The notes beneath the pieces were generated by a model. It searched no databases. It saw only the letters and a list, made by a program, of their open reading frames with translations, and was not told where the DNA came from. From an uncultured Flavobacteriales bacterium (GTDB lineage: Bacteria > Bacteroidota > Bacteroidia > Flavobacteriales > BACL11): a stretch of 64,000 nucleotides of DNA. Below are positions 24,022-62,145 of the stretch, piece after piece. The position numbers were made by a program, and so were the translations under genes. Position 1 is the first letter of the stretch; each line of letters opens with the position of its first letter. The stretch lies in assembly GCA_949372805.1 (NCBI GenBank), contig CASIBH010000013.1:14342-78341 (forward strand). Reading direction: 5' to 3'.

Positions 24022-24024
24022 CAT

Positions 24025-25467: not shown

Positions 25468-25470
25468 AAT

Positions 25471-25887: not shown

Positions 25888-25899
25888 TAAATAGAAATT

Positions 25900-29487: not shown

Positions 29488-29488
29488 T

Positions 29489-41277: not shown

Positions 41278-41302
41278 GTATCCATTTGGGTGCTTTTTTT
41301 TT
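41278..41302 (+). terminator. putative intrinsic terminator after the mini-lipoprotein gene
   Basis: GUAUCC-AUUU-GGGUGC hairpin (6 bp, two of them G-U) followed by nine T residues and preceded by A7. The pairing degrades to C-A mismatches on the minus-strand transcript. Confidence 0.35.
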
Positions 41303-42632
41303 ATCTATTAAATGCTAATCTCATTCCTTTTTTTGTGCTATCAAAAATGCCATTTGAATAAACAAGGTTTCCATTTACAAATGTATGTTTAATTTCTCCT
41401 TGTAGAGATTCTCCTTCAAGGGGAGACCATTTGCATTTGTAATGAAGGTCTTCTTTTTTAACAATTATCTTTTTTGCAATATCTACAAGTACTAAATCAG
41501 CAAAGTAATTCTCTCTTATAAAACCTCTATTACTAATTTTAAAACATATAGCAGGGTTGTGACACATTTTTTCTACAATTTTTTCAATAGTAATTTTTTT
41601 ATTTTCAACAAATTTTAGCATAATGTTTAGCCCATGTTGAACAAGTGGTCCTCCTGATGGAGCGTTAAGATATTTGTTTTGTTTTTCTTCTATTGTATGA
41701 GGAGCATGATCCGTAGCTATTACGTCTATTCTATCATCTATTAATGCTTTAAATAGATTTTCCCTGTCATTTGTTGTTTTGATTGCGGGATTCCACTTTA
41801 TAAGTGTTCCTTTTGAATCATAACTACTTGAATCAAAGTAAAGATGATGAACACAAACCTCAGAAGTTATTTTTTTGTCTTTAATATCTTTTTTATTACT
41901 GAATAAAGAAAGTTCTTTTGCTGTAGATAAATGGAAAACATGAAGTCTGGTTCCGTATTTTTTTGCCAATTCAACTGCATAGCTTGATGATTTATAACAA
42001 GCTTCTTCACTTCTAATAATAGGGTGCTGATTTATAGGAATATTATCTCCAAATTTACTTATTGCTTTTTTAGTGTTGTTTTCAATAATTGTTTCATCCT
42101 CACAATGCACGGCAATTAAACATTTTGTTTTTTTAAAAATCTCATTAAGAATTTTTTTATCGTCAACAAGCATATCTCCTGTGGATGATCCCATAAATAT
42201 TTTAATAGCACCTACATTTTTTGTGTCTGTTTTTAAAACTTCCTCTAGATTATTATTAGAAACACCCATAAAAAACGTGAAATTAGCTAAAGATTTTTCA
42301 TCACCAATTTTAAATTTCTCTTCTAATAATTTTTGTGTTAAAGTTTGTGGTTTGGTATTGGGCATTTCCATAAATGATGTGACCCCACCGCTGATTGCAG
42401 CCCTACTTTCTGATGAAATATCAGCTTTATGAGTTAGTCCGGGCTCTCTAAAATGTACTTGATCATCTATTATTCCTGGCAGTAAGTGTAAGCCAGTTGC
42501 ATCTAATACTTTGTCTGCAACTATATTTATCTCATGAGATATCTCTTTTATTAAGCCATTTTCTAAATAAATATCTGATAAAAAAGTTTTTCCCTCATTA
42601 ACTATTGTTGCATTCTTTATTAAAAAACTCAT
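41301..42632 (-). CDS. pyrC: dihydroorotase (amidohydrolase, long bacterial type)
   Basis: IDDQVHFREPGLTHK, AIKIFMG (candidate carbamylated Lys), AVHCED, HVFHLST and ATDHAPH motifs. Confidence 0.85.
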   Translation of the reverse strand: MSFLIKNATIVNEGKTFLSDIYLENGLIKEISHEINIVADKVLDATGLHLLPGIIDDQVHFREPGLTHKADISSESRAAISGGVTSFMEMPNTKPQTLTQKLLEEKFKIGDEKSLANFTFFMGVSNNNLEEVLKTDTKNVGAIKIFMGSSTGDMLVDDKKILNEIFKKTKCLIAVHCEDETIIENNTKKAISKFGDNIPINQHPIIRSEEACYKSSSYAVELAKKYGTRLHVFHLSTAKELSLFSNKKDIKDKKITSEVCVHHLYFDSSSYDSKGTLIKWNPAIKTTNDRENLFKALIDDRIDVIATDHAPHTIEEKQNKYLNAPSGGPLVQHGLNIMLKFVENKKITIEKIVEKMCHNPAICFKISNRGFIRENYFADLVLVDIAKKIIVKKEDLHYKCKWSPLEGESLQGEIKHTFVNGNLVYSNGIFDSTKKGMRLAFNR

Positions 42633-42645
42633 TTTATGATAATTA

Positions 42646-43374
42646 TTATTTCCAGCTGGTGAAAAAACTGTTTATTTTCATCTGTATTACCCCAACAAAA
42701 GCCTCAAAGAATATCCCACTACTCATTTTTGAATTACCTTCTTGTCTATCTGTAAAAATAACTGGCACCTCAAAAACTTTAAACCCCAACATCCAGCTAG
42801 TAAATTTCATTTCTATTTGAAAGGCGTATCCTACAAATTGAATTTTATCAAGATTGATTTTTTCTAATACCTTTCTACTGTAGCATTTAAATCCAGCTGT
42901 CGAGTCATGAATCGGCATGCCAGTTATCATTTTTACATATTTAGAAGCAAAGTAGGACATCAGAAGTCTACTCATTGGCCAATTTACTATGTTTACTCCA
43001 TTTACATACCTTGATCCAATTGCTACATCAGAGCCTAAATTTTCACATTGGTTAAGAAGTCTTAAAAGATCTTCGGGGTTATGAGAGAAATCAGCATCCA
43101 TTTCAAATATAAATTCATATTTTTTTTGTAGAGCCCATCTAAATCCGTGAATATATGCAGTGCCAAGACCTAATTTTCCTGATCTCTTTTCAATAAATAG
43201 TTTTTTAGAATAATTTTTTTGTAAGTTTTTTACAATATCTGCTGTTCCATCTGGAGAGCCATCATCTACTATTAAAATATGAAAATCATTTTCAAGAGAA
43301 AAAACTTTGAGAATTATTCTCTCTATATTTTCTTTCTCGTTGTATGTCGGTATTATGACTAAGTTTTTGGACAT
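42646..43374 (-). CDS. GT2 polyprenol-phosphate mannosyltransferase (Dpm1-like)
   Basis: VIIPTYNE, DDGSPDGT and EMDADFSH motifs, about 240 aa. Confidence 0.85.
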   Translation of the reverse strand: MSKNLVIIPTYNEKENIERIILKVFSLENDFHILIVDDGSPDGTADIVKNLQKNYSKKLFIEKRSGKLGLGTAYIHGFRWALQKKYEFIFEMDADFSHNPEDLLRLLNQCENLGSDVAIGSRYVNGVNIVNWPMSRLLMSYFASKYVKMITGMPIHDSTAGFKCYSRKVLEKINLDKIQFVGYAFQIEMKFTSWMLGFKVFEVPVIFTDRQEGNSKMSSGIFFEAFVGVIQMKINSFFTSWK

Positions 43375-45337: not shown

Positions 45338-45437
45338 ATATTATTAACAATATTATTTAATTGATAATAATCATGTATTTTATTCTATTTGCAATTCTAT
45401 TCTTTTTGTAAATTAGCAATAAATAAAAAAATAAATT

Positions 45438-46337
45438 ATGAAAAAATATTTACTACTCTTTAGCATGCTTTGTTCTATTTCTTATTTGATAGCACAAGAT
45501 TGTTCAGAATTGTTTTTTTCAGAATATGTTGAAGGATATGGACAAGATAAAGCTATAGAAATATACAACCCAACATTATCAACTATTGACTTAAGTATTT
45601 ATAAAGTAGAGCGTTATTCTAATGGTTCTACTAATAGTTCTGGAGGAGGAGTTACCTCTTTGTCTGGTATGCTTGCTTCAGGAGATGCTTTTGTTTTAAC
45701 AAATGGTGATACTGATACATCAGGTCAATTTGGATATTGTGATCCAGCTCTTTATATTTTAGGAGATATGCATGCAGGACCATATCCATCCCCAATGCAT
45801 ATGAATGGTGACGACGCTATAGTATTATCAAAAGATGCAAGTATTATTGATGTTATTGGAAGAGTTGGTGAACAGCCCTCATCTGGAGCTTGGACTGATG
45901 ATGCTACATCAGGTTTTCAAATGGGCGCTTGGTGGACTGCTCAACATACTTTAGTTAGAAAGAGAACTGTTTTATTTGGTGATAATGATGGGCTTGACTT
46001 ATTTAACCCTAGTCTTGAATGGGATTCATTAGTTGTTGGTTCATGGAATAATTTAGGCTCTCATACTTGTGATTGTATAGACGGCTCTGTTGATATTAAT
46101 GACTTCAAGGAGGTTTCTTATGCGATATATCCCAATCCAGCTAATATTGGAGAAGATATTATGATTGTTGCTAATTCTAATGTTAAAAATATTGAAATTT
46201 TTGATATTTCAGGGAAAAAAGTCTTAACAACAAATTCCAAGAAAATTAATACTGAGAAATTTTCAATTGGTACTTATATCACACTAATTCATCTAAATAA
46301 TGGAGGAGTGATTGAAAATAAGATAATTATTCAGTAA
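45438..46337 (+). CDS. secreted lamin-tail-domain (LTD) protein with T9SS C-terminal sorting domain
   Basis: Signal peptide ending LIAQ. The LTD-like start LFFSEYVEGYGQDKAIEIYNPT..IDLS.YKV resembles the LTD modules of ExeM/NucH-type nucleases. The C-terminus (YPNPANIGEDIMIV ... KIIIQ) looks like a T9SS CTD. Confidence 0.7.
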   Translation: MKKYLLLFSMLCSISYLIAQDCSELFFSEYVEGYGQDKAIEIYNPTLSTIDLSIYKVERYSNGSTNSSGGGVTSLSGMLASGDAFVLTNGDTDTSGQFGYCDPALYILGDMHAGPYPSPMHMNGDDAIVLSKDASIIDVIGRVGEQPSSGAWTDDATSGFQMGAWWTAQHTLVRKRTVLFGDNDGLDLFNPSLEWDSLVVGSWNNLGSHTCDCIDGSVDINDFKEVSYAIYPNPANIGEDIMIVANSNVKNIEIFDISGKKVLTTNSKKINTEKFSIGTYITLIHLNNGGVIENKIIIQ

Positions 46338-46390
46338 ATAATTTAATTTTATAATGCTAATGTTGGATTAGTATTTTTTTAAAAATAAAT

Positions 46391-49141
46391 ATGAAAAAAT
46401 ATTTTTTTATATTATTAGTTTTTAGTTCTGGTTTTGTTCTAAAAGCTCAAACAACTTTAACTGGTAAAATATCTGATGCTAGCAATGGCGAGCCTTTAAT
46501 TGGTGCAACAATAATATATGGTAAGGGAATGGGGACAGCCACAGATTACGATGGTAATTACTCTTTTTTAATTCCTCAAGGAGAGAGAAAAATAGAAGTT
46601 TCTTATGTGGGATATAAGGCAATAAGTAAAATAATATTAGTTACTAAGGAATTACAAATCCTAGATTTCAAATTAAAGACAACTTTGTTAAATGAAGTAC
46701 AAGTTGTTGCTGATATTGCTATAGATCGAGAAACTCCTGTAGCTTTTTCAACAATTCCCATGAAAAAAATTAGTGAGGAATTAGCTTCGCAGGATATCCC
46801 CATGATACTTAATTCAACTCCTGGAGTTTATGCAACACAAACTGGAGGGGGAGATGGTGATGCTAGAATTACAATTAGAGGATTTAATCAGCGAAATGTA
46901 GCTGTAATGATTGACGGGATACCAGTTAATGATATGGAAAATGGTTGGGTATACTGGTCCAATTGGTTTGGTCTGGATGCTGTAACTTCTAATATACAAA
47001 TTCAAAGAGGTTTAGGGGCTTCAAAAATTGCTATTCCTTCAGTTGGTGGTACAATGAATATTTTAACTAAGGGAACTGGAAATAAAAAAGGAGGAACTAT
47101 TAAGCAATCTATAGGTTCATTTGGTAAGTTAAGGACTTCTTTAGGCTATAATTCTGGAAAATTAAATAACGGATGGGGATATACTTTAGCCAGTTCTTAT
47201 AAGAATGGTAATGGCTATGTTGATGAAACCTGGAGTGAGGGTTTTTTCTATTATGCTAAAATTCAGAAAGAATTAGGTAATCATGTTTTAAGCTTTTCAG
47301 TAATGGGAGCTCCTCAAAAGCATGGTCAGAGAGCATATAAAAGTGATATAGCGACTTACGATACTACTCTTGCTCGTTCATTAGGAGATAGTTCTGATTT
47401 CTCTAATAGAATTGTAAATAGAGGTTCTAGCTATAACAAGTATTGGGGTAATTTAGATAGATGGACTCTAGATGCCAATGGAGATACTGTTCATGCTAAA
47501 GAAGTTCTCAATACAAGAATGAATTATTATCATAAACCACAATTTTCATTAAGAGATTTTTGGACTATTAATGATAATTTTTATATTTCGAATATTCTTT
47601 ATTCTTCTTTAGGAAATGGAGGTGGTACAAGAACTGAAAATATTGGACAAGTTGATGGGCAAGTTGATTTACAAACTACATATAATGCAAATGTAGGGGC
47701 AGGTCCTTTTGGCCCAATTATTGATAGTGAATTTTCTGATACAGAGTATAAAACAGGTAGCTATTTAAAGTCTTCAATAAATAATCATTTTTGGTATGGT
47801 GGTTTATCTACTTTAAATTATCTCTTAAATGAAGAGGTATCCATTTCAGGGGGTGTTGATCTAAGATACTATAAAGGTCAGCACTATAGTGAGGTGTACG
47901 ACCTACTTGGGGCAGACTATACTATTTCAACTGATAATCAAAATCAATCTTCATCAGTTAAAAGAGTAGGCGATATCATTGATTATCATAATGATGGTAT
48001 TGTAAAATGGAGTGGTCTATTTTCTCAAGCAGAGTATAGTAATGGAATGTTAAGTGCATTTTTAAATATTTCAGGCTCTAATTCAGCGTATAAACGTATT
48101 GATTATTTTCGTAAAAAAGATTTGATTTTATCTGACACTACAATCCTAGAGGCTTTAGGAAATACAGATACGTTAACTTACAATGGTAATAATTATACAT
48201 TTAACTCCTCTGAAGCACAATTTGCTACAACTAATTGGAAATGGATTAGAGGGTATACCATAAAAACTGGCGCAAACCTTAATCTAGATGAATATAATAA
48301 TGTGTTTTTCAATACAGGATATATTTCAAAAGCACCAAGATTTAGTAATATCTATACTAATAATAATACTTTACAAGAGTATATTAGAAATGAAAATGTT
48401 AAGGCAATTGAAGGGGGGTATTCATTTAGGTCTTCATTCTTTTCTTCAAACTTAAATGCATATTATACAATTTGGGAAAACAAACCTGCAAATATTTCGA
48501 AAACTATTGGAGGCATAAGATATTCTGATGTTGTACCTATGAATGCTTTGCACAAAGGAATAGAGTTGGATTGTTCTTATAAAATTAATAAGAAAATAGG
48601 AGTTGAAGGATTGCTTTCCTTAGGTGATTGGACCTGGACTTCTGGTGGAGAGGCAATCATATTAGATAATTCTAATAATTCGCCTTCTTATGAGCTAGGC
48701 AATACTGATTTCGACACCCTTGTCTATAATGCAAATGGTGTTCATGTTGGAGATGCTGCACAGACACAATATGGATTAAGTTTAAGGTACGAACCAACTT
48801 TTAATTCATATATCAAATTAAGAGGGACGTATTTTTCAGACTACTATTCTGATTTTGATGCATCAACATTAAATGGTGAAAATTCAGGCAGAGAAAGCTG
48901 GGTTATTCCTGCATACCAATTAATAGATTTGCACTGTGGGTATAAATTTAAACTTTCCAATAATCATAATTTAGATATTAAATTGAGCGTACTTAATTTA
49001 CTTGACAAGATATATATATCAGATGCAAATAATAATGATGGATATGCGACAAATCCAAGCTATGATTTTGATGCTAAATCTGCTAGTGTCTTTTTTGGCT
49101 TAGGAAGGAGAATGAGTTTGTCATTAAGACTAAGATTTTAA
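46391..49141 (+). CDS. TonB-dependent outer-membrane receptor (CarboxypepD_reg-like N-domain, plug, barrel); no SusD partner
   Basis: Signal peptide, then TLTGKISDASNGEPLIGATI...VSYVGY (carboxypeptidase-regulatory-like domain) and plug motifs (ITIRGF, VMIDGIPVND). The beta-barrel terminus is ...LSLRLRF. Confidence 0.9.
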   Translation: MKKYFFILLVFSSGFVLKAQTTLTGKISDASNGEPLIGATIIYGKGMGTATDYDGNYSFLIPQGERKIEVSYVGYKAISKIILVTKELQILDFKLKTTLLNEVQVVADIAIDRETPVAFSTIPMKKISEELASQDIPMILNSTPGVYATQTGGGDGDARITIRGFNQRNVAVMIDGIPVNDMENGWVYWSNWFGLDAVTSNIQIQRGLGASKIAIPSVGGTMNILTKGTGNKKGGTIKQSIGSFGKLRTSLGYNSGKLNNGWGYTLASSYKNGNGYVDETWSEGFFYYAKIQKELGNHVLSFSVMGAPQKHGQRAYKSDIATYDTTLARSLGDSSDFSNRIVNRGSSYNKYWGNLDRWTLDANGDTVHAKEVLNTRMNYYHKPQFSLRDFWTINDNFYISNILYSSLGNGGGTRTENIGQVDGQVDLQTTYNANVGAGPFGPIIDSEFSDTEYKTGSYLKSSINNHFWYGGLSTLNYLLNEEVSISGGVDLRYYKGQHYSEVYDLLGADYTISTDNQNQSSSVKRVGDIIDYHNDGIVKWSGLFSQAEYSNGMLSAFLNISGSNSAYKRIDYFRKKDLILSDTTILEALGNTDTLTYNGNNYTFNSSEAQFATTNWKWIRGYTIKTGANLNLDEYNNVFFNTGYISKAPRFSNIYTNNNTLQEYIRNENVKAIEGGYSFRSSFFSSNLNAYYTIWENKPANISKTIGGIRYSDVVPMNALHKGIELDCSYKINKKIGVEGLLSLGDWTWTSGGEAIILDNSNNSPSYELGNTDFDTLVYNANGVHVGDAAQTQYGLSLRYEPTFNSYIKLRGTYFSDYYSDFDASTLNGENSGRESWVIPAYQLIDLHCGYKFKLSNNHNLDIKLSVLNLLDKIYISDANNNDGYATNPSYDFDAKSASVFFGLGRRMSLSLRLRF

Positions 49142-49158
49142 TAAAAAAAATAAAATAA

Positions 49159-51300
49159 ATGAAAAAAATAATATTTGTAGCCTTACTCGCCTTTTCAACA
49201 ATGTCTGTCTATTCACAAGCTACCTTACCTTCCGCGTGGAGTTTCTCCAATGTTAATCTTCCTGCTGGCTGGACTGAATCAGGAACTAATTTTTATACTG
49301 CCTCAGGAAATACACCTCCGGCTATGAAATTTGATGGTACGGGTGATTATTTAATTATTAATATTAATAGTAACCCTGGGGATTTAACTTATTATCTTAC
49401 AGGAAATGGTTTTTCTGGTGGAACTTTTACTGTAGAAGAATCAGATTTTGGAAATGTTTGGTCAACTTTAAATACGCATAATTCACCTCCAAATGCAAGC
49501 TATACAATGTTTACAGATGTTCCACAATCTTCAACTCGATTTATTCGATTTATATATACAAATAAAGTTTCTGGTAATATTGGATTAGATGATGTAAGTA
49601 TTGATATTGGAGCGGCTACTCCAATTCAGGAAATTAATGTAATGCAGTCAGGAAACCCTTTGGTTTCAGGAAGCACTTATATTACTAACTCGCCAGTATC
49701 TACGCTTAACTCTGCAACATTCCTTATTGAAAATCTTGGCACTTTAGATACACTGAATATTACTTCTGCTACAATTTCTGGAGTAAATTCATCTGATTTT
49801 TCTGTGGTTTCTTTTCCAGCAAATGTTATTGCTAATGATTCAGATAGCTTAATATTAAACTTTACTCCTTCATCTTCTGGCACAAGAATAGCAGTTTTAA
49901 ATATTGCCAGTAATGATCTTGATGAGCCTAATTATATTATAAATTTATATGGAATTGGAGGAAATTTAGCCTCAGAGCCAATTCAGCAAGCTTCAAATTT
50001 TGTTTTCACAAATCTTAAAACATTTACTTTTAATACTTCATTTAATGCTACTGATTCAGTTGATGGATATCTCGTTTTAAGAAAAAAAGGTTCAGCACCT
50101 ACTGCATTTCCTTTAGATGGAACTATCTATCAAAGAGGTGATATTATTGGAGATGCTCAAGTAGTCTACAGTAGTAACGTAACAACTGTAACCCCTAATA
50201 ATATTGTAGCAGGTACAGATTATTATTTTGCTGTTTTTAGTTATAATGGCCCAAGTAATTTTAGAAATTATCTTATAAATACTCCGTTATCTGCAAATAT
50301 TACTACACCTAATTCAATGCTATCATCTAGCTTCTACAGTAATTTAAGTACTTCATCTTCTTCTTTTATGAATGATTTACATGCTTTAACTAATCCTCAT
50401 CAAACTCAATACTATAGTTATTATGATGATCTCATGATTGCTTTTTTTGAATCTAGAGATACAACATTAGACAGAAGAGTTGTTACTTGCGTATATAGTG
50501 GTGAAAATAAGATTTATAATGAACCTTTTGATTTTTCTGCAACTGGCTATAGCCGTGAGCATACTTATTGTCATAGCTGGATGCCAACTAATCCTGCACA
50601 AAATCTTCCTGAATATAGTGACTTTCATCATCTTTTCCCATCTAATTTAAATTCTGCAAATATTCTACGTAGTAATAATCCTTTAGGTGAAGTTACTAAT
50701 GTGACATCTTCTTTTTTAGGTTGTAAATCTGGAACCAATAATAACGGTCAAGTTGTTTTTGAACCAAGAGATGAACATAAAGGTGATGCCGCAAGAGCTA
50801 TTATGTATGAGGCAATTTGTTATAACTCAATTAATGGAAATAGTTGGGCTTTACCTAGCTATCAAGATCAAATGATTTTGAAAAACTGGCATTTTCAAGA
50901 TCCTCCAGATAATTGGGAAATTGCAAGAAATGACTTTATCGATTCTATTCAAAATAATAGAAATCCGTTTGTTGATAGTATGAACTACGTATGCTTTATT
51001 GACTTTTCTAATATGTCGTATGATCCTTCTGCTTGTATTCCTTCATCAAATCAAGAGTTGTTAAATCTAGGTTTTGTTACTTATCCAAATCCATGTATTG
51101 ATCAATTAAATATTTATGTTGATGCTACAACTATATCATCATATCAAATAATAGATAATTTAGGCAATATTGTTTTAAGTAATGATGTCAATAATAAAAA
51201 AACAGTAAAAGTGAACACTTCAAAACTTTCTAGTGGATTATACTCTGTCAATGTTGTAACTCCAATTGGTAAAGTTCAGAAAAATATTATTATCCAGTAA
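49159..51300 (+). CDS. multidomain secreted endonuclease I (Vvn/EndA family) with T9SS C-terminal sorting domain
   Basis: Endonuclease I motifs REHTYCHSWMP, DFHHLFPSNLNSANILRSNNPLGEV and EPRDEHKGDAARAIMYE. They are preceded by beta-sandwich modules (a choice-of-anchor-D-like stretch and an FN3-like stretch) and followed by YPNPCIDQLNIYV ... KNIIIQ. Confidence 0.8.
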   Translation: MKKIIFVALLAFSTMSVYSQATLPSAWSFSNVNLPAGWTESGTNFYTASGNTPPAMKFDGTGDYLIININSNPGDLTYYLTGNGFSGGTFTVEESDFGNVWSTLNTHNSPPNASYTMFTDVPQSSTRFIRFIYTNKVSGNIGLDDVSIDIGAATPIQEINVMQSGNPLVSGSTYITNSPVSTLNSATFLIENLGTLDTLNITSATISGVNSSDFSVVSFPANVIANDSDSLILNFTPSSSGTRIAVLNIASNDLDEPNYIINLYGIGGNLASEPIQQASNFVFTNLKTFTFNTSFNATDSVDGYLVLRKKGSAPTAFPLDGTIYQRGDIIGDAQVVYSSNVTTVTPNNIVAGTDYYFAVFSYNGPSNFRNYLINTPLSANITTPNSMLSSSFYSNLSTSSSSFMNDLHALTNPHQTQYYSYYDDLMIAFFESRDTTLDRRVVTCVYSGENKIYNEPFDFSATGYSREHTYCHSWMPTNPAQNLPEYSDFHHLFPSNLNSANILRSNNPLGEVTNVTSSFLGCKSGTNNNGQVVFEPRDEHKGDAARAIMYEAICYNSINGNSWALPSYQDQMILKNWHFQDPPDNWEIARNDFIDSIQNNRNPFVDSMNYVCFIDFSNMSYDPSACIPSSNQELLNLGFVTYPNPCIDQLNIYVDATTISSYQIIDNLGNIVLSNDVNNKKTVKVNTSKLSSGLYSVNVVTPIGKVQKNIIIQ

Positions 51301-51332: not shown

Positions 51333-52973
51333 TTATGCCTTTTTAAATATTTTTTCAACTTTCTGTGCAAAATACATTAGGTAAAGAAAGCAAAATACTG
51401 TTACCCAATAAGATTCATGTATACCGATGATATCAGCAAGTTTTCCTTGAATTGGAGGTATAATTGCTCCTCCAAGAATCATCATAACTAAAAAAGCAGA
51501 GCCTTGAGAAGTATATTTTCCCAATCCTTTTATACTTAATGAAAATATAGAAGGCCACATTATAGAGCAAAATAATCCTCCACTTAGAAATGCGAAAATT
51601 GCAACTGTTCCTGTTGTAAATAATCCAACAAGCATTGCTAGAACTCCTAAAAGACCAAATGTTTTTAGTGTTAGTGCTGGCTTGTCTTTGCCAATAAAAA
51701 ATCCTCCAATTTGTATTGCAACACAAATTGCAAAAGCAAAAAGATGTTTCACTTCAAAGCCAGAAATAGCATTAACAGATAAAACAACCCCAAAAGCTAT
51801 ATATGGCACCAATATATAAAGCCATTTTTTTAAAGAAACAGATGGATTAAAAACAGTAATTGCTCCTGTCCATCTTCCAATCATAAGCCCTCCCCAATAC
51901 ATGGATATATATGGAGCAATTTCAGTATCGTTTAATGCTCCAAAAGCTGTAGTTTTTAATAGCTCACCAAGATTACTTTGAATAGAAACTTCTACTCCAA
52001 CATATGTAAAAATTGCTAACATCCCAAGTACAAGTTGTGGGTATTGCATAGCACCCCAACCCTCAGACTTTTTCTTTGCTAAAAAGTTAGAAAATAACAA
52101 TCCCCCAACAACAACAAATAGTCCTAGCAGTGATAGATTTAGTATCATTGAATCAGATGCTTCACTTAAAGATTGACCATCTTCTAGACCAACGTACTGA
52201 TTAAATACTTGATAGAAAATTAAAATCAATAGTATTGTAATTGAGATAAGTGATGTCATAGCTTTTGAAGCACCAAGAAAGCTTGAGTCTTCTTTTCCTT
52301 CAGGAAGTTTCTTTGAGAAATGAAATAGTGCTGCTGCTGCAATAAATAATATACCAACAGCTATATATAAATATTGGACAACTGTAAGAGTTATATTTTT
52401 TTCAGAAATTTCTTTTACTAAATCAATTTCTGCACTTGCAGCTGTTCCGAATAATGCTAAAGAGACAACAATTGGTCCAATAGCTGTACCGAAAGAATTA
52501 ACTCCCCCTGCTAAATTTAATCTATGTGATCCTTTTGATGGTTCCCCTAGTGAAATAGCAAATGGGTTGGCAGCTGTTTGTTGTAGAGAAAAGCCAAGCC
52601 CAACGATAAAAAGAGCTCCTAAAATATATGTAAAAGCAGAAGAATCTCCAGGGCTAGCTCCATTTACTGCTAAAACCATAGCGCCTGCACCAACTGCAGA
52701 CAGCATTAACCCTTTAACTATACTACTTTTAAATCCCCAAGAGTTCATGATATCAGTATTCCTAACACTAGAAAATATAAAAAGCATTAAAGCTCCAATA
52801 TAATAAGCTCCGTAAAATGCAAAATCAATTAATTGGCTTTGAAATTGATCCAGACTAAAATAGGTCTTACAAAAAGGAATGAAAACACCATTACTTGCCG
52901 CTATAAAACCCCAAAAAAAGAATACTGTAACTAAAGTAAGTAGTGCTTGTTTATAATTTTTATTATCGCTCAT
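51333..52973 (-). CDS. sugar MFS transporter (FucP/GluP/NagP-like)
   Basis: 546 aa with about 12 helices. The N-terminal region [19 protein letters not shown] and the [13 protein letters not shown] motif resemble glucose/galactose/fucose:H+ symporters. Confidence 0.75.
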
Positions 52974-52978
52974 TTTTT

Positions 52979-55873
52979 TTATTTAATTGTTAATTCATCA
53001 ACAAATAACCATGTTTTTCCTCCAGCACCAAGATGCCATTCTGGACATGTTCCATAGTTTTCTGCTGATATCTTTATATATCTTGCAGTATTTTTTTTAA
53101 ATTCTAGATGAAACTCTTCTTGAAAACTACCTTCTATTGTATCAGGAAAAATACTTTTTATTTCACCCAAATAATTATATTTCTCACCATCTGTAGAAGT
53201 CCAATATTTAACAGTCTTTGGATAAAAAATCCATGATCGAATATCTTGATGACATCCCAAAGATATAGATTTAATTTCTTTAATTTTATTTAGATCAACT
53301 ACAAGTTCTAAATTTTCTCTATATCCCTGCCAATTTCCTGTTCGATAATTTGAACCTCCTCTTAGTTGATCAATTAACGTTTTATTACCTGCAGCTGCAT
53401 ATTGATTAGCATAATTACTATTAATTGTGATGCTTTTGCTATTGTCAATTTTAAAATATTTACTTGAAACGTTTTTACTCTTTTTATTATTTTTAAAGGA
53501 ATAAGCATGAATTTCTGCATCTTTTTGTAAAAGAATTGGATCAATATATTCTTTAAACTTAGATTCGTTGATTGAGAAGAATATTTTTGCACTATCAACT
53601 GTTGAAAGAGAAATTGAAATATCTTTAGCAAAAGTTTGACTCTCAGCAATAAAAAATGGCACAGGAACAATAATATTTTTTTCTATTTTAGAAATAGGTA
53701 TTTCATTTTCGCCCCAATCACTTGGATTATTGCCCATTTCAAATATTATTTTCCCTCCATCTATAATAGATTTATGATTTAAATAGCTTGAGTTAAATGC
53801 TTCTCCGTTTAATGAGGCGCTTTGAATGTAAATATTATTATCACTTAGATTTAAAGCAGTTATTTCAAATTTATTCCCATTCTCTAAATTAATTATTGCG
53901 TTATTAAAAAATGGAGTTCCAATTGTATAATAATCAAGACCTGGAGTGACAGGGTAAAAACCTAAACTACTCAAAACATACCATGATGACATTTGACCAC
54001 AATCTTCATTTCCAGATAATCCATCGGGAAGATTAGAATATTGTTCATTCATTATTTTTGCAGCATATTTTTGAGTTTTTGAAGCTTTTCCTATATAGTT
54101 ATATAAATAAGCCATATGATGACTAGGTTCATTTCCGTGAGCATATTGGCCAATTAAGCCAGTAACATCTGGCTGATGTCTTCCTGAAGTTGTACTTTCA
54201 GCTTCAAACATTCTATCAAGATGTTTTTCATACAACTTATTGCCACCTTTTAAAATAATATGCCCTGTAATATCTTGAGGTACAAAAAGTGAATATTGCC
54301 ATGCATTTGCTTCAGTGTAATTAAAGTTAACCTCTTCTGGTTTAAATGGTCCAAACCATGAGTATTCATTTTTACCTCTAAAAAAACCAGTTTTTGGATC
54401 ATATAAGTTTTTATAGTATTGTGCTCTCTCATAGAATCTTTTCGCGATCTTCTCTTCTCCAAGAGAATCCGCCATTATTGCAATACACCAATCGTCATAT
54501 GCATATTCTAAATTTTTTGAAACTGATTCAGGTTCATCGCTTGCTTTAATATATCCATTTTCTTTATATGCTTTTAGGCCATGAGTATTACTTTCTGCTG
54601 ATTTCACCATTGCTTCAAGTGCTAGCTTTACATCATAATCTCTAATTCCTTTCATATATGCATCTACTATTACTGGAATTGCATGATAACCGATCATGCA
54701 ATCTGTATAATTTGCGGCTAACTCCCAGATTGGCAGCTTTCCTCCATCTTTATATTGCCTTAGAAGTGTTCTTATAAATTGATTTGTCCTTTCAGTTTCT
54801 AAAATTGTAAATAGTGGGTGAGTTGCTCTAAAGGTATCCCACAAAGAAAATACTGTATAATGTTTATCTGAAGAATTATGTTTTTTAAAATCCATTCCGA
54901 GATAATTGCCGTTTATATCGTTATAAGTATTTGGAGCAAGAAATGAATGATAAAGAGCTGAATAGAATATTTCCTTTTTTTCGTCTGACTGTGTAGTAAT
55001 TTCTACCTTTTTTAGTTGATTATTCCAAGTCTTTTGCGCATTATCTTTACACTCAACAAAACTTAAGTCGCTTATTTCTTGTAAATTTTCTAAAGCTCCT
55101 ATACTATCTACAGCTGAGATAGCAATTTTTGTTATTAATGGTTGGTCTATTTTTCCAAAGCTAAGTCCTAAAATATTTTTATCATCATTAAGAATAAATT
55201 TTTTGAAAGGTTGAGAAAATTTTATTATAAAATGAATTCTTTGATCTCTTGCCCACTCGCTAGAAAATCTAAAACCTGAGATTGTTAAACTATCAATAAT
55301 ATTTATCTTATATTTTAATAGTTTGTCTCTATGTTGTAGATCTAAAATAATATTTGCTGAATCATTTGAGTTAAATGTATACTTATGTATTCCACTTCTA
55401 AGAGCTGTTGTCAACTCAACATTAATATTGTAATCCTGTAATAATACTTGGTAATAGCCTGGGCTAGATGTTTCATTTAAGTGTGAAAATTTTGAACTAT
55501 AGCCTAATTGATTAATTGTATTTTTATTTGAGTTTTTAGATTCTTTGACTCCATTAGTTAACTTTATTTTTCCACTTGTAGGCATTAATAGAATGTCTCC
55601 ATAATCTGATATTCCGGTTCCGCTTAAGTGTGTGTGTGAGAAACCATAAATAATAGAGTCAGAAAAATGATAACCTCCACATCCGTCCCAGCCTTCAAGT
55701 CTAGTGTCTGGACTTAGTTGCATCATTCCAAATGGAAGTGTAGCCCCAGGGTAGGTATGTCCATGACCGCCTGTACCTATAAAAGTATTTACATAATCTA
55801 TGGGTTCTTTTTTAATATTATCACATGCACAAGTGATAATAGCTATTAAAATTAGTAAATTTAATTTTTTCAT
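52979..55873 (-). CDS. GH92 alpha-mannosidase lipoprotein with C-terminal discoidin-like domain
   Basis: [30 protein letters not shown] is the GH92 N-terminal signature. Lipobox ITCAC. The last ~165 aa are homologous to the GH20 C-terminus. Confidence 0.9.
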
Positions 55874-58050
55874 TTTATTATTATTTCGTCAATAAATATC
55901 CAGCAATCTGATCCTGCTGCTGGATGTTTTTCTGGTAATTTTCCAAAGTTTTTTGCAATTAATTTAATAAATCTTGCACTTTGTTTTTTATTGAATTTAA
56001 ACTCTTTTTTAAACTTTCCTTCTTGCATCGGATTTGAATTAAAGTTTTTTTGATCATATATAATAAAATCTTTTCCATTACTAGAAATCATTATTTCAAT
56101 TTTCTTTGGTATTATAATCCAAGATAAGTTATACTGAAAGAATGAAGTTTTGATTTCTGAGAACTCAAGTTCTTCCTCTAAGTCTATAATTACTTCAACA
56201 TCCTTCGCAAAAAATCCTTGCCACTGACCATCTCTAAAGTTGGATAAATCCCCAAATATTCCATTAGATAGACTATTGTTTCCATTGGCTGGATAATTTT
56301 TATCATATGCAGTTAAATAATTTATCTTTTTTCCTAGTGCTAGGTGCTTATTTAATTTGATTTCTTTTGAAGCTGGATTATCTCTAATAGAATTTACTTC
56401 TTTTACATTTATTATTGCACTCTTATTTATTATAATTGGTCTTGTATACTTTTGCCAGTTATTATCATCAATTTTATATTTTAAATCCATCTTTTTATAA
56501 GATTTAAATATTTCTACGCGAAAATTATTGTTAATTATTTTAATATCATAATCAATAGGAGTTTTCTCATATCCATATTTTACTCCAAATAAATCTAACT
56601 TAGGATAGTGGTTTCTAACTCTACTTTGAAAATCTTTAAAATCTTTATTATTTTCACTCCAGAGAACTTCAGCCATAGCTAATATCCGTGGAAATACTTT
56701 TGAATCAATAGATTCTTGAGGAGCATGTTCACTCCACATATTGCATTCTCCACCAATTATATGTTTACTTTCTTTTTCTGTCAAACCTTTTGGTATTGGT
56801 TCAAAAGAATAGACTTTTTCTAGATTAATTGCCTGTAAATCATAATCAAAATAGCAATGTGATGTAGGTGACATAATTACATCGTGATTTTTTTGAGCCG
56901 CTAATATTCCACCGTCTATTCCTCTCCAAGATTGAATTGTAGCGGAAGGGGCTATTCCACCCTCAATTATTTCATCCCATCCAATTATTCTTTTTCCATT
57001 TTTTGAGATAAATTTTTCAATTCTTTTGATAAAATAAGATTGTAATTCATGCTCATCTTTTAGTTTTTCATCTCTTATCCTTTTCTGGCATTTAATACAT
57101 TCTCTCCACCTGTATTTAGGCGCTTCATCTCCTCCAATATGAATATATTGGGATGGGAAGATTTCCATAACTTCAGTAAGAACATTTTCAAGAAAAGTAT
57201 ACACACTATCATTACCTGCACAGTAAATATCCTTAAAGACACCCCAATCATTCTCAACTTCTAAGGAGTCTCCTGTACATGAAAGATATGGATATGAGGC
57301 TATAGCAGCTACAGAATGACCAGGAAGCTCAATTTCAGGTATAATCTCAATATGTTGTTTTTTTGCATATTCGATGATTTCTATTAAATCATCTTTAGAA
57401 TAAAATCCACCATATTTTTCTCCATTTTTATTTATTCTCCATGCTCCTATATCGGTTAGCTTAGGGTACTTTTCTATAGCTATTCTCCATCCTTGGTCCT
57501 CTGTTAAATGTAAATGAAGAATATTCATTTTATGAAATGCGAGTAAATCTATATAGCGTTTTATAAAATCTTTATCCATAAAATGTCTACAGCAGTCAAG
57601 TAGCATCCCTCTCCATTTAAACCTTGGAAAATCATGAATTTCTAAACATTGAATTTCTAAATTTTCAGTATTTTTTTTATAGTTGATTGGAAATAATTGC
57701 CTTAGACTTTGTATCGCGTGCATGCACCCCTTTCCATTTGAAGCTTCAATGGTAATTGTATTTTTTGAAATATTTAAATAATATTCTTCATCTTCTAGAA
57801 AAATATTCTGCTTTAATACGATATAGTTTTTACTTCCTGTTAAATCTAATGAGATTATATTTTTTAAAAAGTTTAGTTCATTAATAAACAAACTATCAAA
57901 CTTAATTCCGGTATTATTATTTAAACTAAATACCCCAGATTCTAATATCATCTTCTGAGGTTTTGGAATAATAGTTAAGTTATCACCCTTTTTTTTTTCA
58001 TTTAAACATGAACTAAAGAAAAATAAAATTAGAATGAGTAATCTGATCAT
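55870..58050 (-). CDS. GH20 beta-N-acetylhexosaminidase lipoprotein with C-terminal discoidin-like domain
   Basis: HLHLTEDQGWR and HIGGDE catalytic motifs. Lipobox FFSSC. ATGA overlap with GH92. Confidence 0.9.
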   Translation of the reverse strand: MIRLLILILFFFSSCLNEKKKGDNLTIIPKPQKMILESGVFSLNNNTGIKFDSLFINELNFLKNIISLDLTGSKNYIVLKQNIFLEDEEYYLNISKNTITIEASNGKGCMHAIQSLRQLFPINYKKNTENLEIQCLEIHDFPRFKWRGMLLDCCRHFMDKDFIKRYIDLLAFHKMNILHLHLTEDQGWRIAIEKYPKLTDIGAWRINKNGEKYGGFYSKDDLIEIIEYAKKQHIEIIPEIELPGHSVAAIASYPYLSCTGDSLEVENDWGVFKDIYCAGNDSVYTFLENVLTEVMEIFPSQYIHIGGDEAPKYRWRECIKCQKRIRDEKLKDEHELQSYFIKRIEKFISKNGKRIIGWDEIIEGGIAPSATIQSWRGIDGGILAAQKNHDVIMSPTSHCYFDYDLQAINLEKVYSFEPIPKGLTEKESKHIIGGECNMWSEHAPQESIDSKVFPRILAMAEVLWSENNKDFKDFQSRVRNHYPKLDLFGVKYGYEKTPIDYDIKIINNNFRVEIFKSYKKMDLKYKIDDNNWQKYTRPIIINKSAIINVKEVNSIRDNPASKEIKLNKHLALGKKINYLTAYDKNYPANGNNSLSNGIFGDLSNFRDGQWQGFFAKDVEVIIDLEEELEFSEIKTSFFQYNLSWIIIPKKIEIMISSNGKDFIIYDQKNFNSNPMQEGKFKKEFKFNKKQSARFIKLIAKNFGKLPEKHPAAGSDCWIFIDEIIIK

Positions 58051-59027
58051 TTAATAAAAGATGATGAGTCAATCATTTTATTTTGACTATTTTGATATAG
58101 TGCATAATTAAAACCTTTTTGAACAGCGTAAGCGCCATGCTCCCCTTTTTTGTTTATTGCTAGGTAGCCAATTTGCATGTCTTTATAATTTTGGTTTTTT
58201 ACAATTCTAGAGATACCTTCTTCGCACGCCTCTTGAGGACTTGCTCCTTGCCTCATGAGCTCTACTATTAAAAATGATCCAAGTGTTTTCATAACAGCTT
58301 CCCCAACCCCTGTGGCACAACATCCGCCAATTTCATTATCAACAAACATACCAGCTCCAATAATTGGAGAATCTCCAACCCTCCCATGCATTTTCCATGC
58401 AAGACCTGATGTTGTACATGCTCCAGAAATATTATTTTTTTGATCAATAGCAAGCAGACCAATTGTATCATGATTCTCAACATTTATTATTGGCTTATAT
58501 TTAGAGTCTTTTAACCACTCTTCCCACTTCTCTCTCGCTTTATTTGTAAGTAAATCTTCTTTATGAAATCCGTTTTTTAATGCAAATTGTAAAGCGCCTT
58601 CACCAGAAAGCATTACATGAGGAGTTTTATCCATTACTTTTCTTGCTACAGAAATAGGATGTTTGATATTCTGAAGAAAACTTACGGAACCACAGTTACC
58701 AGTGTGATCCATAATACATGCATCTAAAGTGACATTTCCATCTCTATCTGGCCAGCCGCCATATCCAACACTTGTACATTCTGGATCTGCTTCTGCCACG
58801 CATACAGCAGCCTCAACGGCATCAATTGCATGAAAACCTTTGTTGATTAATTTATATGCTTCAGCATTTGCAGCTAATCCATGTTGCCAAGTAGAAATAA
58901 TTATTGGTAATCCCTTTTGAGAGTAAAGATTTTGTTTTTGTATTTTAGAGGAAGCTATTTTTGGTGTAATGATTGCACCTAGAGCTCCAATTGATGTTTT
59001 TTTAATAAAACTTCTTCGATCTGACAT
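58047..59027 (-). CDS. N4-(beta-N-acetylglucosaminyl)-L-asparaginase (glycosylasparaginase, Ntn hydrolase), Tat signal
   Basis: Twin-arginine motif SDRRSFIKK and the autoprocessing site HDTIGLLA (Thr nucleophile). Overall it resembles the characterised Elizabethkingia (Flavobacterium) enzyme. Confidence 0.9.
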   Translation of the reverse strand: MSDRRSFIKKTSIGALGAIITPKIASSKIQKQNLYSQKGLPIIISTWQHGLAANAEAYKLINKGFHAIDAVEAAVCVAEADPECTSVGYGGWPDRDGNVTLDACIMDHTGNCGSVSFLQNIKHPISVARKVMDKTPHVMLSGEGALQFALKNGFHKEDLLTNKAREKWEEWLKDSKYKPIINVENHDTIGLLAIDQKNNISGACTTSGLAWKMHGRVGDSPIIGAGMFVDNEIGGCCATGVGEAVMKTLGSFLIVELMRQGASPQEACEEGISRIVKNQNYKDMQIGYLAINKKGEHGAYAVQKGFNYALYQNSQNKMIDSSSFIK

Positions 59028-59029
59028 AG

Positions 59030-61456: not shown

Positions 61457-61458
61457 TC

Positions 61459-62145
61459 TTATAAAGATTTAACTTTTTGAACAGCCATTTTAACGTTTTC
61501 ATATTTTGTTTCTAATTGTCCATTTTGTACTAGCTCTTTTCCTGAAAGATGAAACTCTCTAATTCCTATCTTATAAAGTGATTCGATATTATTATGATTA
61601 ACACCTCCTCCAGCAATTATATTAATCCTGTTTTTTGCTAATTTAACTATTTGTTTAAGATTTTCTATCCCATCAATTACATTTTCTTTTTGACCAGATG
61701 TTAGTATATAATCACATTTACAAGATATTATATCCTCTAATGCTTGTGGCATATTTAATACGCAATCAAATGCTCTATGAAATGTTACTTTCATAGGTTT
61801 GGCGGCTAACACCATAAGCTTTGTTTGTTCTTTGTTTACGGATAAGTTAGGATTTAATGCTCCAATTACAATCCCATCACATTTTAAATTTTTGCAGAAT
61901 TGTATATCTATTAAAATTTGTTGAAACTCTAATTTAGTATATTGAAATTGGTTAGCTTTTGGAAGAATTAGGATATGAATTTTTATATCTGATAATTCTC
62001 TAAGTTTGATTATTTCACTATTTGAAGGAGTAATGCCTCCCTGCTCTAAATTTTGACATAGTTCAATTCTTGAAGCTCCTGCTTTTATACCATTTAGTGC
62101 TGATTGAATTGAATTTGCACAGCACTCTAAATTAGTTATAGGCAT
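61459..62145 (-). CDS. cutC: CutC family TIM-barrel protein (biochemical function unknown)
   Basis: 228 aa with RIELC and VTFHRAFD motifs characteristic of the CutC family. No signal peptide. Confidence 0.85.
   Translation of the reverse strand: MPITNLECCANSIQSALNGIKAGASRIELCQNLEQGGITPSNSEIIKLRELSDIKIHILILPKANQFQYTKLEFQQILIDIQFCKNLKCDGIVIGALNPNLSVNKEQTKLMVLAAKPMKVTFHRAFDCVLNMPQALEDIISCKCDYILTSGQKENVIDGIENLKQIVKLAKNRINIIAGGGVNHNNIESLYKIGIREFHLSGKELVQNGQLETKYENVKMAVQKVKSL

Follow-up and report, generated by a model that had tools for sequence, protein, structure and literature searches.

Three co-oriented genes at positions 45438 to 51300 of the window (the whole 64,000 nt stretch of DNA that was analysed, from an uncultured Flavobacteriales bacterium) are judged, with a probability of roughly 60%, to form one operon encoding an outer-membrane system that harvests extracellular DNA and that is a T9SS-dependent relative of the ddb loci known from gut Bacteroidales. 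The ocean holds much organic phosphorus and nitrogen in the form of dissolved and particulate extracellular DNA, which Bacteroidota are known to consume. To our knowledge, the outer-membrane route of this consumption has been defined only in two gut and pathogen models, and the locus provides a concrete candidate for such a route.

The initial annotation had described a lamin-tail domain (LTD) protein with a T9SS tail, a TonB-dependent receptor without an adjacent SusD and an endonuclease I protein with a T9SS tail, and this was confirmed by open reading frames and domain scans. All on the forward strand, the genes encode a T9SS-secreted LTD accessory protein of 299 aa (gene 1, 45438..46337), a SusD-less TonB-dependent transporter of the DdbC-like family of 916 aa (gene 2, 46391..49141) and a T9SS-secreted modular nuclease of 713 aa (gene 3, 49159..51300), with intergenic gaps of 53 nt between genes 1 and 2 and 17 nt between genes 2 and 3. 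No SusD Pfam family was found in the 14 flanking genes scanned. A promoter-like element on the forward strand, TTTGTAAATTAGC (45405..45417), is located roughly 20 nt 5' of the LTD start codon and is kept in 9 of 12 aligned marine-clade upstream regions. It is similar to the Bacteroidota -7 box (TAnnTTTG), which suggests that it could act as a promoter. RNA folding placed a forward-strand hairpin followed by a T-run between the LTD and transporter genes (46353..46380). At -8.3 kcal/mol (z = -1.39) its energy alone is not significant, and compared with the window and L001 its stem carries compensatory changes in related loci L002, L004 and L006. Partial termination or stabilisation of the mRNA are possible roles of the hairpin. 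No terminator-like site was found within the three-gene locus, and a sigma-70 promoter and terminator scan returned nothing above background, the sigma-70 model not being applicable to Bacteroidota. The comparison of upstream regions identified no Pho-type regulatory site and Rfam and tRNA scans gave no matches.

The LTD of gene 1 (PF00932, aa 21-142) scored 49.8 bits against a cutoff of 34.3, and the sorting tail was matched by both Por_Secre_tail (PF18962, 34.8 bits, cutoff 27) and TIGR04183 (33.2 bits, cutoff 23). The protein begins with a signal peptide (aa 1-19, predicted cleavage after ..IA and before Q) and continues past the LTD with a conserved extension (aa 143-229) that contains H209-x-C211-x-C213, followed by a type-A T9SS C-terminal domain (CTD) at aa 230-299. 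With both a Sec signal and a C-terminal sorting domain present, it belongs to the T9SS type-A cargo. A PDB profile search with the LTD family matched the T9SS tail alone and the single-sequence structure model of the protein reached a pLDDT of 29.6.

Gene 2 comprises a signal peptide (aa 1-19), a CarboxypepD_reg N-terminal extension (aa 22-105), a TonB-box-like LNEVQVVAD (aa 100-108), a plug (aa 113-211) and a barrel that extends to aa 916. Pfam returned CarbopepD_reg_2 and Plug and no match for the barrel, which is therefore divergent. No SusC/RagA model was returned by the NCBIfam scan. The family profile matched solved SusC homologs over positions 3-182 only, at no more than 83 bits, and generic solved TonB-dependent transporters (TBDTs) over the N-terminal extension and plug only. 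The family comprises 586 representative clusters at E<=1e-30, relatives of the transporter are encoded in at least 598 species genomes, and the transporter is the best conserved member of the triplet (67-100% identity in the marine clade).

The window transporter aligned end-to-end with TBDTs of P. vulgatus (P0436, KAB3842681.1; 34% identity, 450 bits) and P. massiliensis (34% identity, 445 bits). The loci of these two species have the order TBDT-DUF5017-EEP nuclease and span about 5.5 kb, and thus correspond to the published size of the Pv-type ddb locus (PMC12478041). The bridge to the ddb transporters ran through a Phocaeicola record in a plasmid collection, and the Pv-type DdbC identity rests on species, locus content and size, the published DdbC accessions (WP_005843284.1 and others) being absent among the cluster members listed. 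Against these Pv-type candidates the window transporter is DdbC-homologous. According to the initial annotation, TonB-dependent uptake of DNA breakdown products was not known to have been described. This is outdated, as the ddbABCDEF TonB-dependent DNA-utilisation loci of B. thetaiotaomicron (Sharan et al., PNAS 2025, PMC12478041) and the TBDT/DUF5689 pair of R. anatipestifer, a pair of natural-transformation genes (Huang et al. 2021, PMC8459023), have been published, and the window transporter is a full-length homolog of a gut ddb-type transporter. What appears to be new is a T9SS-dependent version with transporter relatives in these 598 or more species, a universal LTD partner and interchangeable catalytic and binding modules.

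Gene 3 encodes, on the forward strand, a signal peptide (aa 1-19, predicted cleavage after ..S and before Q), an N1 beta-sandwich (aa 19-152, 49213-49614), an Ig-like choice-of-anchor-D/ASH module (aa 153-270), an fn3-like module (aa 271-400), an Endonuclease I domain (aa 416-612, 50404-50994) and a type-A CTD (aa 638-713). Endonuclease_1 (PF04231) was matched at 95.3 bits against a curated cutoff of 25, over profile positions 39-233 of 235, and the tail at 38.2 bits by Por_Secre_tail and 28.9 bits by TIGR04183 (cutoffs 27 and 23); the Sec signal and sorting domain place the protein among T9SS type-A cargo. The Endonuclease I (EndoI) motifs are complete, namely SREH 465-468, DFHHLFP 488-494, N501, EPRDEHKGDAAR 535-546 (EPRD..KG..AR) and NRNPF 600. 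N501 aligns to the Mg-ligand Asn of Vvn (structures 1OUP/1OUO). By profile score and catalytic motifs alike, gene 3 is an Endonuclease I whose nuclease activity is predicted from the motif set, and the locus, like ddb-type loci, encodes a secreted nuclease (EndoI motifs, Sec signal and T9SS CTD). An adjacent DUF5689 (DdbD) partner is missing from the window: none of the three window proteins gave a DUF5689 signal at a threshold as loose as E<=10, and an HMM search of the downstream protein found neither DUF5689 nor DUF5017. DUF5689 is the one module for which DNA binding has been argued in print, and its absence counts against the DNA-harvesting reading. N1 takes the DUF5689 slot of type-B relatives and the two modules are not homologous (HHalign probability 0.1%). 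The possibility that N1 is a cryptic DUF5689 or DUF5017 was rejected at HHalign probabilities of 0.1-0.3%, with no HMM matches. The AlphaFold model of N1 is jelly-roll-like at low confidence (pLDDT 59), and Foldseek returned generic jelly-roll matches only (CBM6, CBM4, MAM, gingipain adhesin) at E ~1e-3, too weak for ligand assignment. Charge was rejected as an indicator of DNA binding; it is uninformative because all modules, catalytic domains included, are acidic.

A synteny survey confirmed that the triplet proposed in the initial annotation is conserved. Practically all of the roughly 85 independent loci that encode a homologous transporter show the three-gene layout, and chance is therefore not an adequate explanation for it. 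In 75 of 75 loci from across Bacteroidota the upstream partner matched PF00932 together with Por_Secre_tail, and SusD was found in none of the 75. The downstream census took in 57 complete partners, all of which contain a nuclease domain (35 Endonuclease_1, 22 PLDc_2) and 56 of which contain a T9SS tail. Members of the close marine clade (TBDR identity of 60% or more) carry EndoI in some cases and PLD in others as the catalytic domain, and this non-homologous replacement shows that a secreted nuclease is the function selected at the downstream position. DUF5689 is fused to the nuclease in sister loci (36 bits against a cutoff of 28.6) and was counted in 38 of the 57 downstream partners by a local HMM and in 28 by Pfam. 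A Persicobacter homolog (L091) had no nuclease or LTD context.

The survey also bears on the reading in which the transporter is the importer of the convergent N-glycan degradation operon (51.3-62.1 kb) and the nuclease and LTD genes are unrelated neighbours. The window contains no SusC/D pair for that operon (MFS, GH92, GH20, glycosylasparaginase, GH2, CutC), which speaks for such a role. However, loci L004 and L005 of close relatives hold the LTD-TBDT-nuclease triplet without the operon, the nuclease gene there abutting accC, and of the roughly 85 loci only 4 distinct ones contain GH92 homologs. The operon is moreover convergent with the triplet and not co-transcribed with it, and it was found in a subset of the marine clade only. 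The transporter as importer for the N-glycan operon was thus refuted by synteny, the covariation that would have spoken against DNA as the substrate did not occur, and the reading as a whole is scarcely credible.

A link to 5'-nucleotidases, looked for in the flanks, was found in relatives of the locus. A split 5'-nucleotidase follows the triplet directly in 14 loci and is physically linked in 14-16. One half of this enzyme has a lipoprotein signal and the other a Tat signal, and neither has a CTD, from which a periplasmic location follows. Extra nuclease genes of the EndoI, PLD, EEP and S1-P1 types occur in other loci. Next to the window triplet there is no 5'-nucleotidase, phosphatase or nucleoside transporter. 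Conservation of the triplet, the linked 5'-nucleotidases and the outcome of the N-glycan comparison lend good support to the earlier proposal of a locus resembling a polysaccharide utilisation locus (PUL) and aimed at nucleic acid.

In other bacteria, Endonuclease I enzymes remodel the biofilm or eDNA matrix, free cells from DNA traps or serve competition. By analogy, the nuclease and LTD protein could act extracellularly only, with the transporter co-transcribed without importing DNA products. The strict co-occurrence of the triplet at phylum scale, with the transporter best conserved, is however hard to explain without functional coupling. The periplasmic 5'-nucleotidase linked in relatives implies that phosphorylated products reach the periplasm, and the whole ddb locus is needed for DNA-derived nucleobase production (PMC12478041). 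A purely extracellular role is accordingly regarded as improbable.

The harvesting of DNA is further suggested by comparison with the ddb loci. Both have a SusD-less TBDT with a CarboxypepD_reg extension whose gene is co-transcribed with those of secreted nucleases and of a surface partner other than SusD, and both follow a PUL-like compartment logic; sister loci of the window contain DUF5689, the DdbD domain. The accessory proteins of window-type loci are T9SS cargo with sorting domains whereas those of ddb are lipoproteins, and where the gut loci examined encode EEP or Endonuclease_NS nucleases, the window-type loci encode Endonuclease I or PLD. In T9SS-type relatives nuclease and binding module form one protein, whereas ddb has a separate DdbD. 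Furthermore, the LTD protein is always upstream in window-type loci and was seen in none of the gut loci examined, and the window carries N1 where DUF5689/DUF5017 would stand.

The closest flavobacterial precedent, RA0C_RS04915/RA0C_RS04920 of Riemerella, likewise belongs to the Flavobacteriales and, compared by description, has a TBDT that is recognised chiefly through a carboxypeptidase-regulatory-like domain. A gene for a surface protein comes next, and a nuclease gene is adjacent. Its published phenotype is however transformation and not nutrition, which counts against the DNA-feeding reading. The Riemerella partner is a DUF5689+DUF5017 'choice-of-anchor J' protein that is missing from the window, so that of this pair only the TBDT is represented there. 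Homologs at ~34-35% identity are reported in marine Flavobacteriaceae (PMC8459023). If the locus served natural transformation, the transporter, assisted by DNA-binding surface proteins, would take long DNA across the outer membrane into the periplasm, followed by ComEC-dependent import and recombination, a route that has been proposed for the R. anatipestifer homologs, and the nuclease would trim or nick the incoming DNA. Transformation in R. anatipestifer requires both RA0C_RS04915 (CarboxypepD_reg TBDT) and RA0C_RS04920 (DUF5689+DUF5017), and a nuclease gene adjoins them (PMC8459023; PMC12478041). TonB is described as affecting transformation in the same species (PMC8383284), and nuclease-fused DUF5689 is present in 38 of 57 related loci. 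On the other hand, non-specific secreted EndoI or PLD enzymes, three or four of them in some loci, would destroy transforming DNA, and the periplasmic 5'-nucleotidase to which 14 loci are joined is a catabolic step. Neither comEC, dprA nor comF was among the best 25 of 68 recurring co-oriented flanking families, no competence gene was found among the window genes scanned, and the window is without DUF5689 and DUF5017. Transformation as the function of the locus therefore appears unlikely on this comparative evidence.

The feeding system proposed here resembles a SusC/SusD PUL in bringing together a surface hydrolase, a surface accessory protein, a TonB importer and periplasmic finishing enzymes, and in sharing an N-terminal extension and plug. 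It differs from the canonical form in that there is neither an adjacent SusD lipoprotein nor a SusC/RagA match for the transporter, the operon contains no CAZymes and the putative substrate is nucleic acid. EndA1/EndA2 of F. johnsoniae (Fjoh_4721/4723) combine fn3, LTD and Endonuclease_1 modules and are outer-membrane/exoproteome nucleases linked to phosphorus scavenging (Lidbury et al. 2021, PMC8115612). In these, however, LTD and nuclease form one protein and the genes were described as 'orphan', with no transporter link reported (PMC8115612), whereas in the window the LTD is a protein of its own and the nuclease shares an operon with a TBDT. The LTD is tied to extracellular DNA degradation in ExeM/NucH of Shewanella as well, although its role is undefined even in ExeM (PMC6085458), and Vvn/EndA have the same catalytic motif set as the window EndoI. 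ExeM/NucH and Vvn/EndA are gammaproteobacterial, use other secretion routes and have no dedicated TonB-dependent importer, and compared with Vvn the window EndoI is divergent, scoring ~31 bits against the Vvn sequence, and is one of the five modules of a T9SS protein.

In the proposed mechanism, the LTD protein and nuclease would be exported by Sec and would then cross the outer membrane via T9SS by means of their C-terminal sorting domains, to be surface-anchored or released as expected from their family. The Vvn/EndA-type EndoI domain would cut DNA non-specifically to oligo- and mononucleotides, with the three N-terminal beta-sandwich modules positioning the substrate or docking the enzyme and N1 standing in for the DUF5689 DNA-binding module of relatives. 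The LTD protein is a putative SusD/SusE-like surface partner of the transporter or the nuclease, a role suggested by strict co-occurrence only and the weakest step of the scheme. Phosphorylated breakdown products would be brought into the periplasm by the TonB-dependent transporter, as its homology to ddb-type TBDTs and the linked periplasmic 5'-nucleotidase in relatives suggest, and periplasmic 5'-nucleotidases/phosphatases encoded elsewhere in the genome would free phosphate and nucleosides for uptake. Most likely, this kit lets marine Flavobacteria feed on environmental DNA, as it does hundreds of further Bacteroidota species; in the oligotrophic ocean phosphorus is probably the main gain, in addition to nitrogen and carbon. 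Depletion of DNA requires ddbABCDEF (PMC12478041), the LTD+EndoI nucleases of F. johnsoniae are induced by phosphate depletion (PMC8115612) and DNA carbon is assimilated by marine Bacteroidota (PMC8289736).

The concept of the 2025 DNA-utilisation locus is hereby extended from lipoprotein-based gut systems to T9SS-based environmental ones, and a universal uncharacterised LTD partner protein is identified. The modular nuclease design (EndoI or PLD; DUF5689 or N1) could serve as a genomic marker of DNA foraging. The locus also has a bearing on the possible carriage of nucleic acid by TonB-dependent transporters, a matter of interest for the unusual competence system of Flavobacteriia. A bolder and rather doubtful reading is that the LTD protein and the N-terminal module of the nuclease are T9SS-delivered lids or docking partners, a new non-lipoprotein class of TBDT partner that is anchored through a secretion system, and that the transporter passes DNA oligomers or even long ss/ds DNA across the outer membrane. 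If this were true, abundant uncultured marine Flavobacteriales would be major consumers of dissolved-DNA phosphorus and potentially competent by a pilus-independent route.

F. johnsoniae may have a member of the transporter family in Fjoh_3841, a Pi-induced orphan TBDT whose only annotation is pf13620. The window-type locus is densely sampled in ocean metagenomes.

Three co-oriented genes on the forward strand make up the locus. They encode a lamin-tail domain (LTD) protein of 299 aa (gene 1, 45438–46337), a TonB-dependent transporter of 916 aa (gene 2, 46391–49141) and a nuclease of 713 aa (gene 3, 49159–51300), with spacers of 53 and 17 nt, exactly as claimed in the initial annotation. The domain assignments made there were likewise borne out. 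Gene 1 matched LTD PF00932 at 49.8 bits (cutoff 34.3) and ends in a type-A T9SS sorting domain. The transporter is composed of a CarboxypepD_reg-like N-terminal extension and a Plug domain with a TonB-box-like LNEVQVVAD between them; no barrel family match was recognised and no SusD was found nearby. In gene 3, three beta modules precede an Endonuclease_1 domain (95.3 bits, profile positions 39–233 of 235) and a C-terminal T9SS sorting domain (CTD). No element of the endonuclease I signature is missing (SREH 465–468, DFHHLFP 488–494, N501, EPRDEHKGDAAR 535–546, NRNPF 600), and N501 aligns with the Mg-binding Asn of Vvn. All three proteins carry Sec signal peptides cleaved between A/S and Q. 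The window has a G+C content of ~30%, and many ocean-metagenome sequences carrying a Flavobacteriales label are almost identical to the triplet proteins.

Close relatives of the transporter number in the thousands, the best 120 being 67–100% identical, and an exhaustive search gave 586 representative clusters (E<=1e-30), whose full-length alignments extend to identities as low as ~32%. Where close relatives lie on long contigs, the transporter was always accompanied by the LTD gene and a ~710-aa T9SS gene. In a survey that took one genome for each species, a relative was detected in at least 598 genomes, and the best 80 loci were retained. These span 39–77% identity and MAGs of Flavobacteriales, Crocinitomicaceae, Saprospiraceae, Chitinophagales-type, Bacteroidales, Lentimicrobiaceae and Prolixibacteraceae. 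Nearly everywhere the gene maps showed a 300–360-aa protein, the transporter and a 710–830-aa protein in this order with short spacers. In a Pfam census the upstream partner carried both LTD and Por_Secre_tail in 75/75 loci, while 56 of the 57 complete downstream partners carried Por_Secre_tail. Each of these 57 had exactly one catalytic type, either Endonuclease_1 (35) or PLD (PLDc_2, 22), and DUF5689 was present in 28 by Pfam and 38 by a local HMM. As a module the triplet is ancient and spans the phylum, and the conservation anticipated in the initial annotation was found, with LTD upstream in every locus and a nuclease domain downstream in 57/57. An abundant transporter subfamily (cluster P0245, 827 aa; Schleiferiaceae/Flavobacteriales MAGs) aligned only from query residue 100 onward and therefore lacks the CarboxypepD_reg extension. 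The family also reaches MAGs labelled Gemmatimonas and Marinimicrobia. Typical Bacteroidota LTD-transporter loci in L010, L054, L063 and L082 are labelled Thalassomonas, Comamonadaceae, Parcubacteria and Sphingomonadales, which are probably MAG binning or labelling errors.

Four nuclease architectures occupy the one gene 3 position: DUF5689-(fn3)-PLD-CTD (type A, 22 loci), DUF5689-Ig-fn3-EndoI-CTD (type B, 12 loci), N1-Ig-fn3-EndoI-CTD (type C, 19 loci, including the window) and EndoI-DUF5689-CTD (type D, 4 loci). In the transporter tree the type C clade of the window is sister to type A loci. Compared with one of these, L004, the window nuclease has only the sorting tail in common; the LTD proteins are 47% and the transporters 68% identical. 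The nucleases of three further loci (L067, L069 and L086) are 60–63% identical to that of the window whereas their LTD proteins are only 41–44% and their transporters 43% identical, which suggests that the nuclease gene may have been exchanged between loci as a cassette. That one nuclease fold replaces another at a fixed position beside a conserved transporter strongly supports nucleic-acid cleavage as the selected function. The N-terminal beta module of the window nuclease, N1 (aa 19–152), sits exactly where DUF5689 does in type B. No kinship of N1 was detectable with DUF5689 (HHalign 0.1%) or with DUF5017, and its weak all-beta AlphaFold model (pLDDT 59) matched only generic CBM/MAM-type jelly rolls. 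In L044 (5040–7934) and L066 (5936–9004) a second LTD is fused ahead of DUF5689-PLD. Extra T9SS nuclease genes are stacked beyond the core triplet in L019 (10701–17912) and L025 (10736–16269), the kinds seen in relatives being EndoI-CTD, EndoI-EEP-CTD and PLD-CTD.

The initial annotation had considered that the transporter might instead belong with the convergent N-glycan degradation operon on the reverse strand (51333–62145; MFS sugar transporter, GH92, GH20, glycosylasparaginase, GH2 beta-mannosidase-like, CutC), in which no SusC/D pair was found. This did not hold. In L004 and L005, whose transporter is 68% identical to that of the window, the triplet is kept and the operon is missing, and gene 3 abuts the biotin carboxylase gene accC, the counterpart of window 62166–63500. 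GH92 homologs were found in only four distinct loci, of the marine clade in every case. The transporter thus co-varies with the genes for the LTD protein and the nuclease and not with the glycan operon, which is itself a presence/absence polymorphism. On its other side the triplet adjoins a GT2 glycosyltransferase and amidohydrolase gene pair (41301–43374, reverse strand). In distant loci of Bacteroidales type (L018 13319–15474, also L022, L031 and L040) the same pair is again next to the triplet, there on the opposite side and in the same orientation, which suggests an ancient conserved chromosomal neighbourhood. A forward-strand cluster at 22147–31249, including aldehyde dehydrogenase, kynureninase and FAD monooxygenase, is consistent with kynurenine/tryptophan degradation or an NAD pathway unrelated to the triplet.

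The functional idea of the initial annotation, DNA utilisation, is well supported and the observation behind it real; its remark of knowing no description of TonB-dependent uptake of DNA products has been superseded. The ddbABCDEF operon of B. thetaiotaomicron, described earlier as BT3560-3563 (PMC8851478), encodes the transporter DdbC, its DUF5689 partner DdbD and three nucleases; both DNA depletion and nucleobase production depend on this operon (PMC12478041). Natural transformation in R. anatipestifer requires RA0C_RS04915 and RA0C_RS04920 (PMC8459023). Both systems pair a SusD-less transporter of similar appearance with nucleases, and theirs were the only works on DUF5689 in the searchable literature. 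A protein search of a plasmid collection returned a 909-aa Phocaeicola massiliensis transporter with 34% identity to that of the window over the whole length, its gene being followed by one for a DUF5017 protein. Close homologs of this transporter include proteins of P. vulgatus and B. uniformis. The P. vulgatus-type locus (TBDT-DUF5017-EEP nuclease, ~5.5 kb) fits the Pv-type ddb locus as published (5.77 kb), and the B. uniformis-type locus reads TBDT-unknown-Endonuclease_NS. With the named P. vulgatus protein the window transporter scored 450 bits, with BtuB-type models ~45 bits, and the family profile matched solved TBDTs in the N-terminal extension and plug only (<=114 bits). Since the Phocaeicola alignments are full-length and those to solved TBDTs N-terminal only, the window transporter is placed, by way of the Phocaeicola proteins, in a putative DdbC-like family. 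In contrast to the window, partners in the gut ddb-type loci examined are lipoproteins, and no LTD gene was seen there. The window locus is accordingly not categorically new but a T9SS-dependent, LTD-associated, modular relative of transporter systems for DNA utilisation and DNA uptake that were described recently. This form occurs very widely among environmental Bacteroidota and appears to be undescribed; the literature search returned no paper joining 'lamin tail domain', 'TonB-dependent' and 'nuclease'. The P. massiliensis TBDT-DUF5017 pair (L090/L092) lies on a 21-kb 'circular plasmid' (OY726028.1, 'plasmid 54') that also encodes the housekeeping-type panB, ABC-F ATPase, HtrA-like protease, riboflavin synthase and acyl-CoA synthetase, and is likely a chromosomal contig that was deposited under the label of a plasmid.

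A total of 75 further co-oriented genes flanking triplet loci were ranked by family. The commonest were 5_nucleotid_C/NadN_C (12) and Metallophos (11), followed by extra Endonuclease_1 (6), S1-P1 nuclease (2), PLDc_2 (2) and DUF5017 (2). Both halves of a split 5'-nucleotidase directly follow the nuclease gene in 14 loci, co-oriented and nearly abutting, and lie just upstream on the opposite strand in two more. In the window itself no nucleotidase or phosphatase adjoins the triplet. One half of the split enzyme carries a lipoprotein signal, the other a twin-arginine signal and neither a T9SS tail, so the enzyme is predicted to be periplasmic; its linkage to the triplet implies passage of phosphorylated products through the outer membrane. 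By the logic of polysaccharide utilisation loci, depolymerisation would occur at the surface, followed by TonB-dependent import and finishing in the periplasm. In some loci of Bacteroidales type three successive nuclease genes follow the transporter, and competence genes were absent from the top 25 recurring families. In agreement, phosphate depletion induces LTD+EndoI nucleases in F. johnsoniae (PMC8115612), and carbon from DNA is assimilated by marine Bacteroidota, whose gene sets include extracellular nucleases and periplasmic nucleotidases (PMC8289736). Based on the nucleotidase linkage, the stacked nucleases, the lack of competence genes among those top 25 families and this literature, we favour nutrient acquisition from DNA, at a probability of roughly 0.6, over natural transformation. 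The latter, kept alive by the Riemerella phenotype and compatible with a nutritional role, seems unlikely to be what the triplet serves. Phosphate depletion also strongly induces Fjoh_3841 (log2FC 7.7), an F. johnsoniae 'orphan' TBDT annotated with pf13620 only (PMC8115612), which has an equally sparse annotation to the window transporter family and may be a member of it.

Strict co-occurrence hints that the LTD protein may act as a partner within the triplet; even for ExeM no defined role of the LTD is on record (PMC6085458). Net charge held no information on DNA binding, all modules being acidic. Outside the Pfam LTD core, His209 is invariant in the partner family (75/75) and three cysteines are conserved, C22 (71/75), C211 (72/75) and C213 (71/75), a pattern that could reflect a metal site, or a disulfide and a free thiol. 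No regulator site was found at the window locus; a conserved -7-box-like element lies upstream of the LTD gene. The 53-nt spacer contains a forward-strand hairpin with a T-run (46353–46380). By energy alone this is not significant (z = -1.39), yet its stem shows compensatory changes, GCTAAT/ATTAGC in the window and L001 against GCTGATG/CATCAGC in L002, L004 and L006. The hairpin may be a partial terminator that keeps the LTD protein in excess of the transporter.
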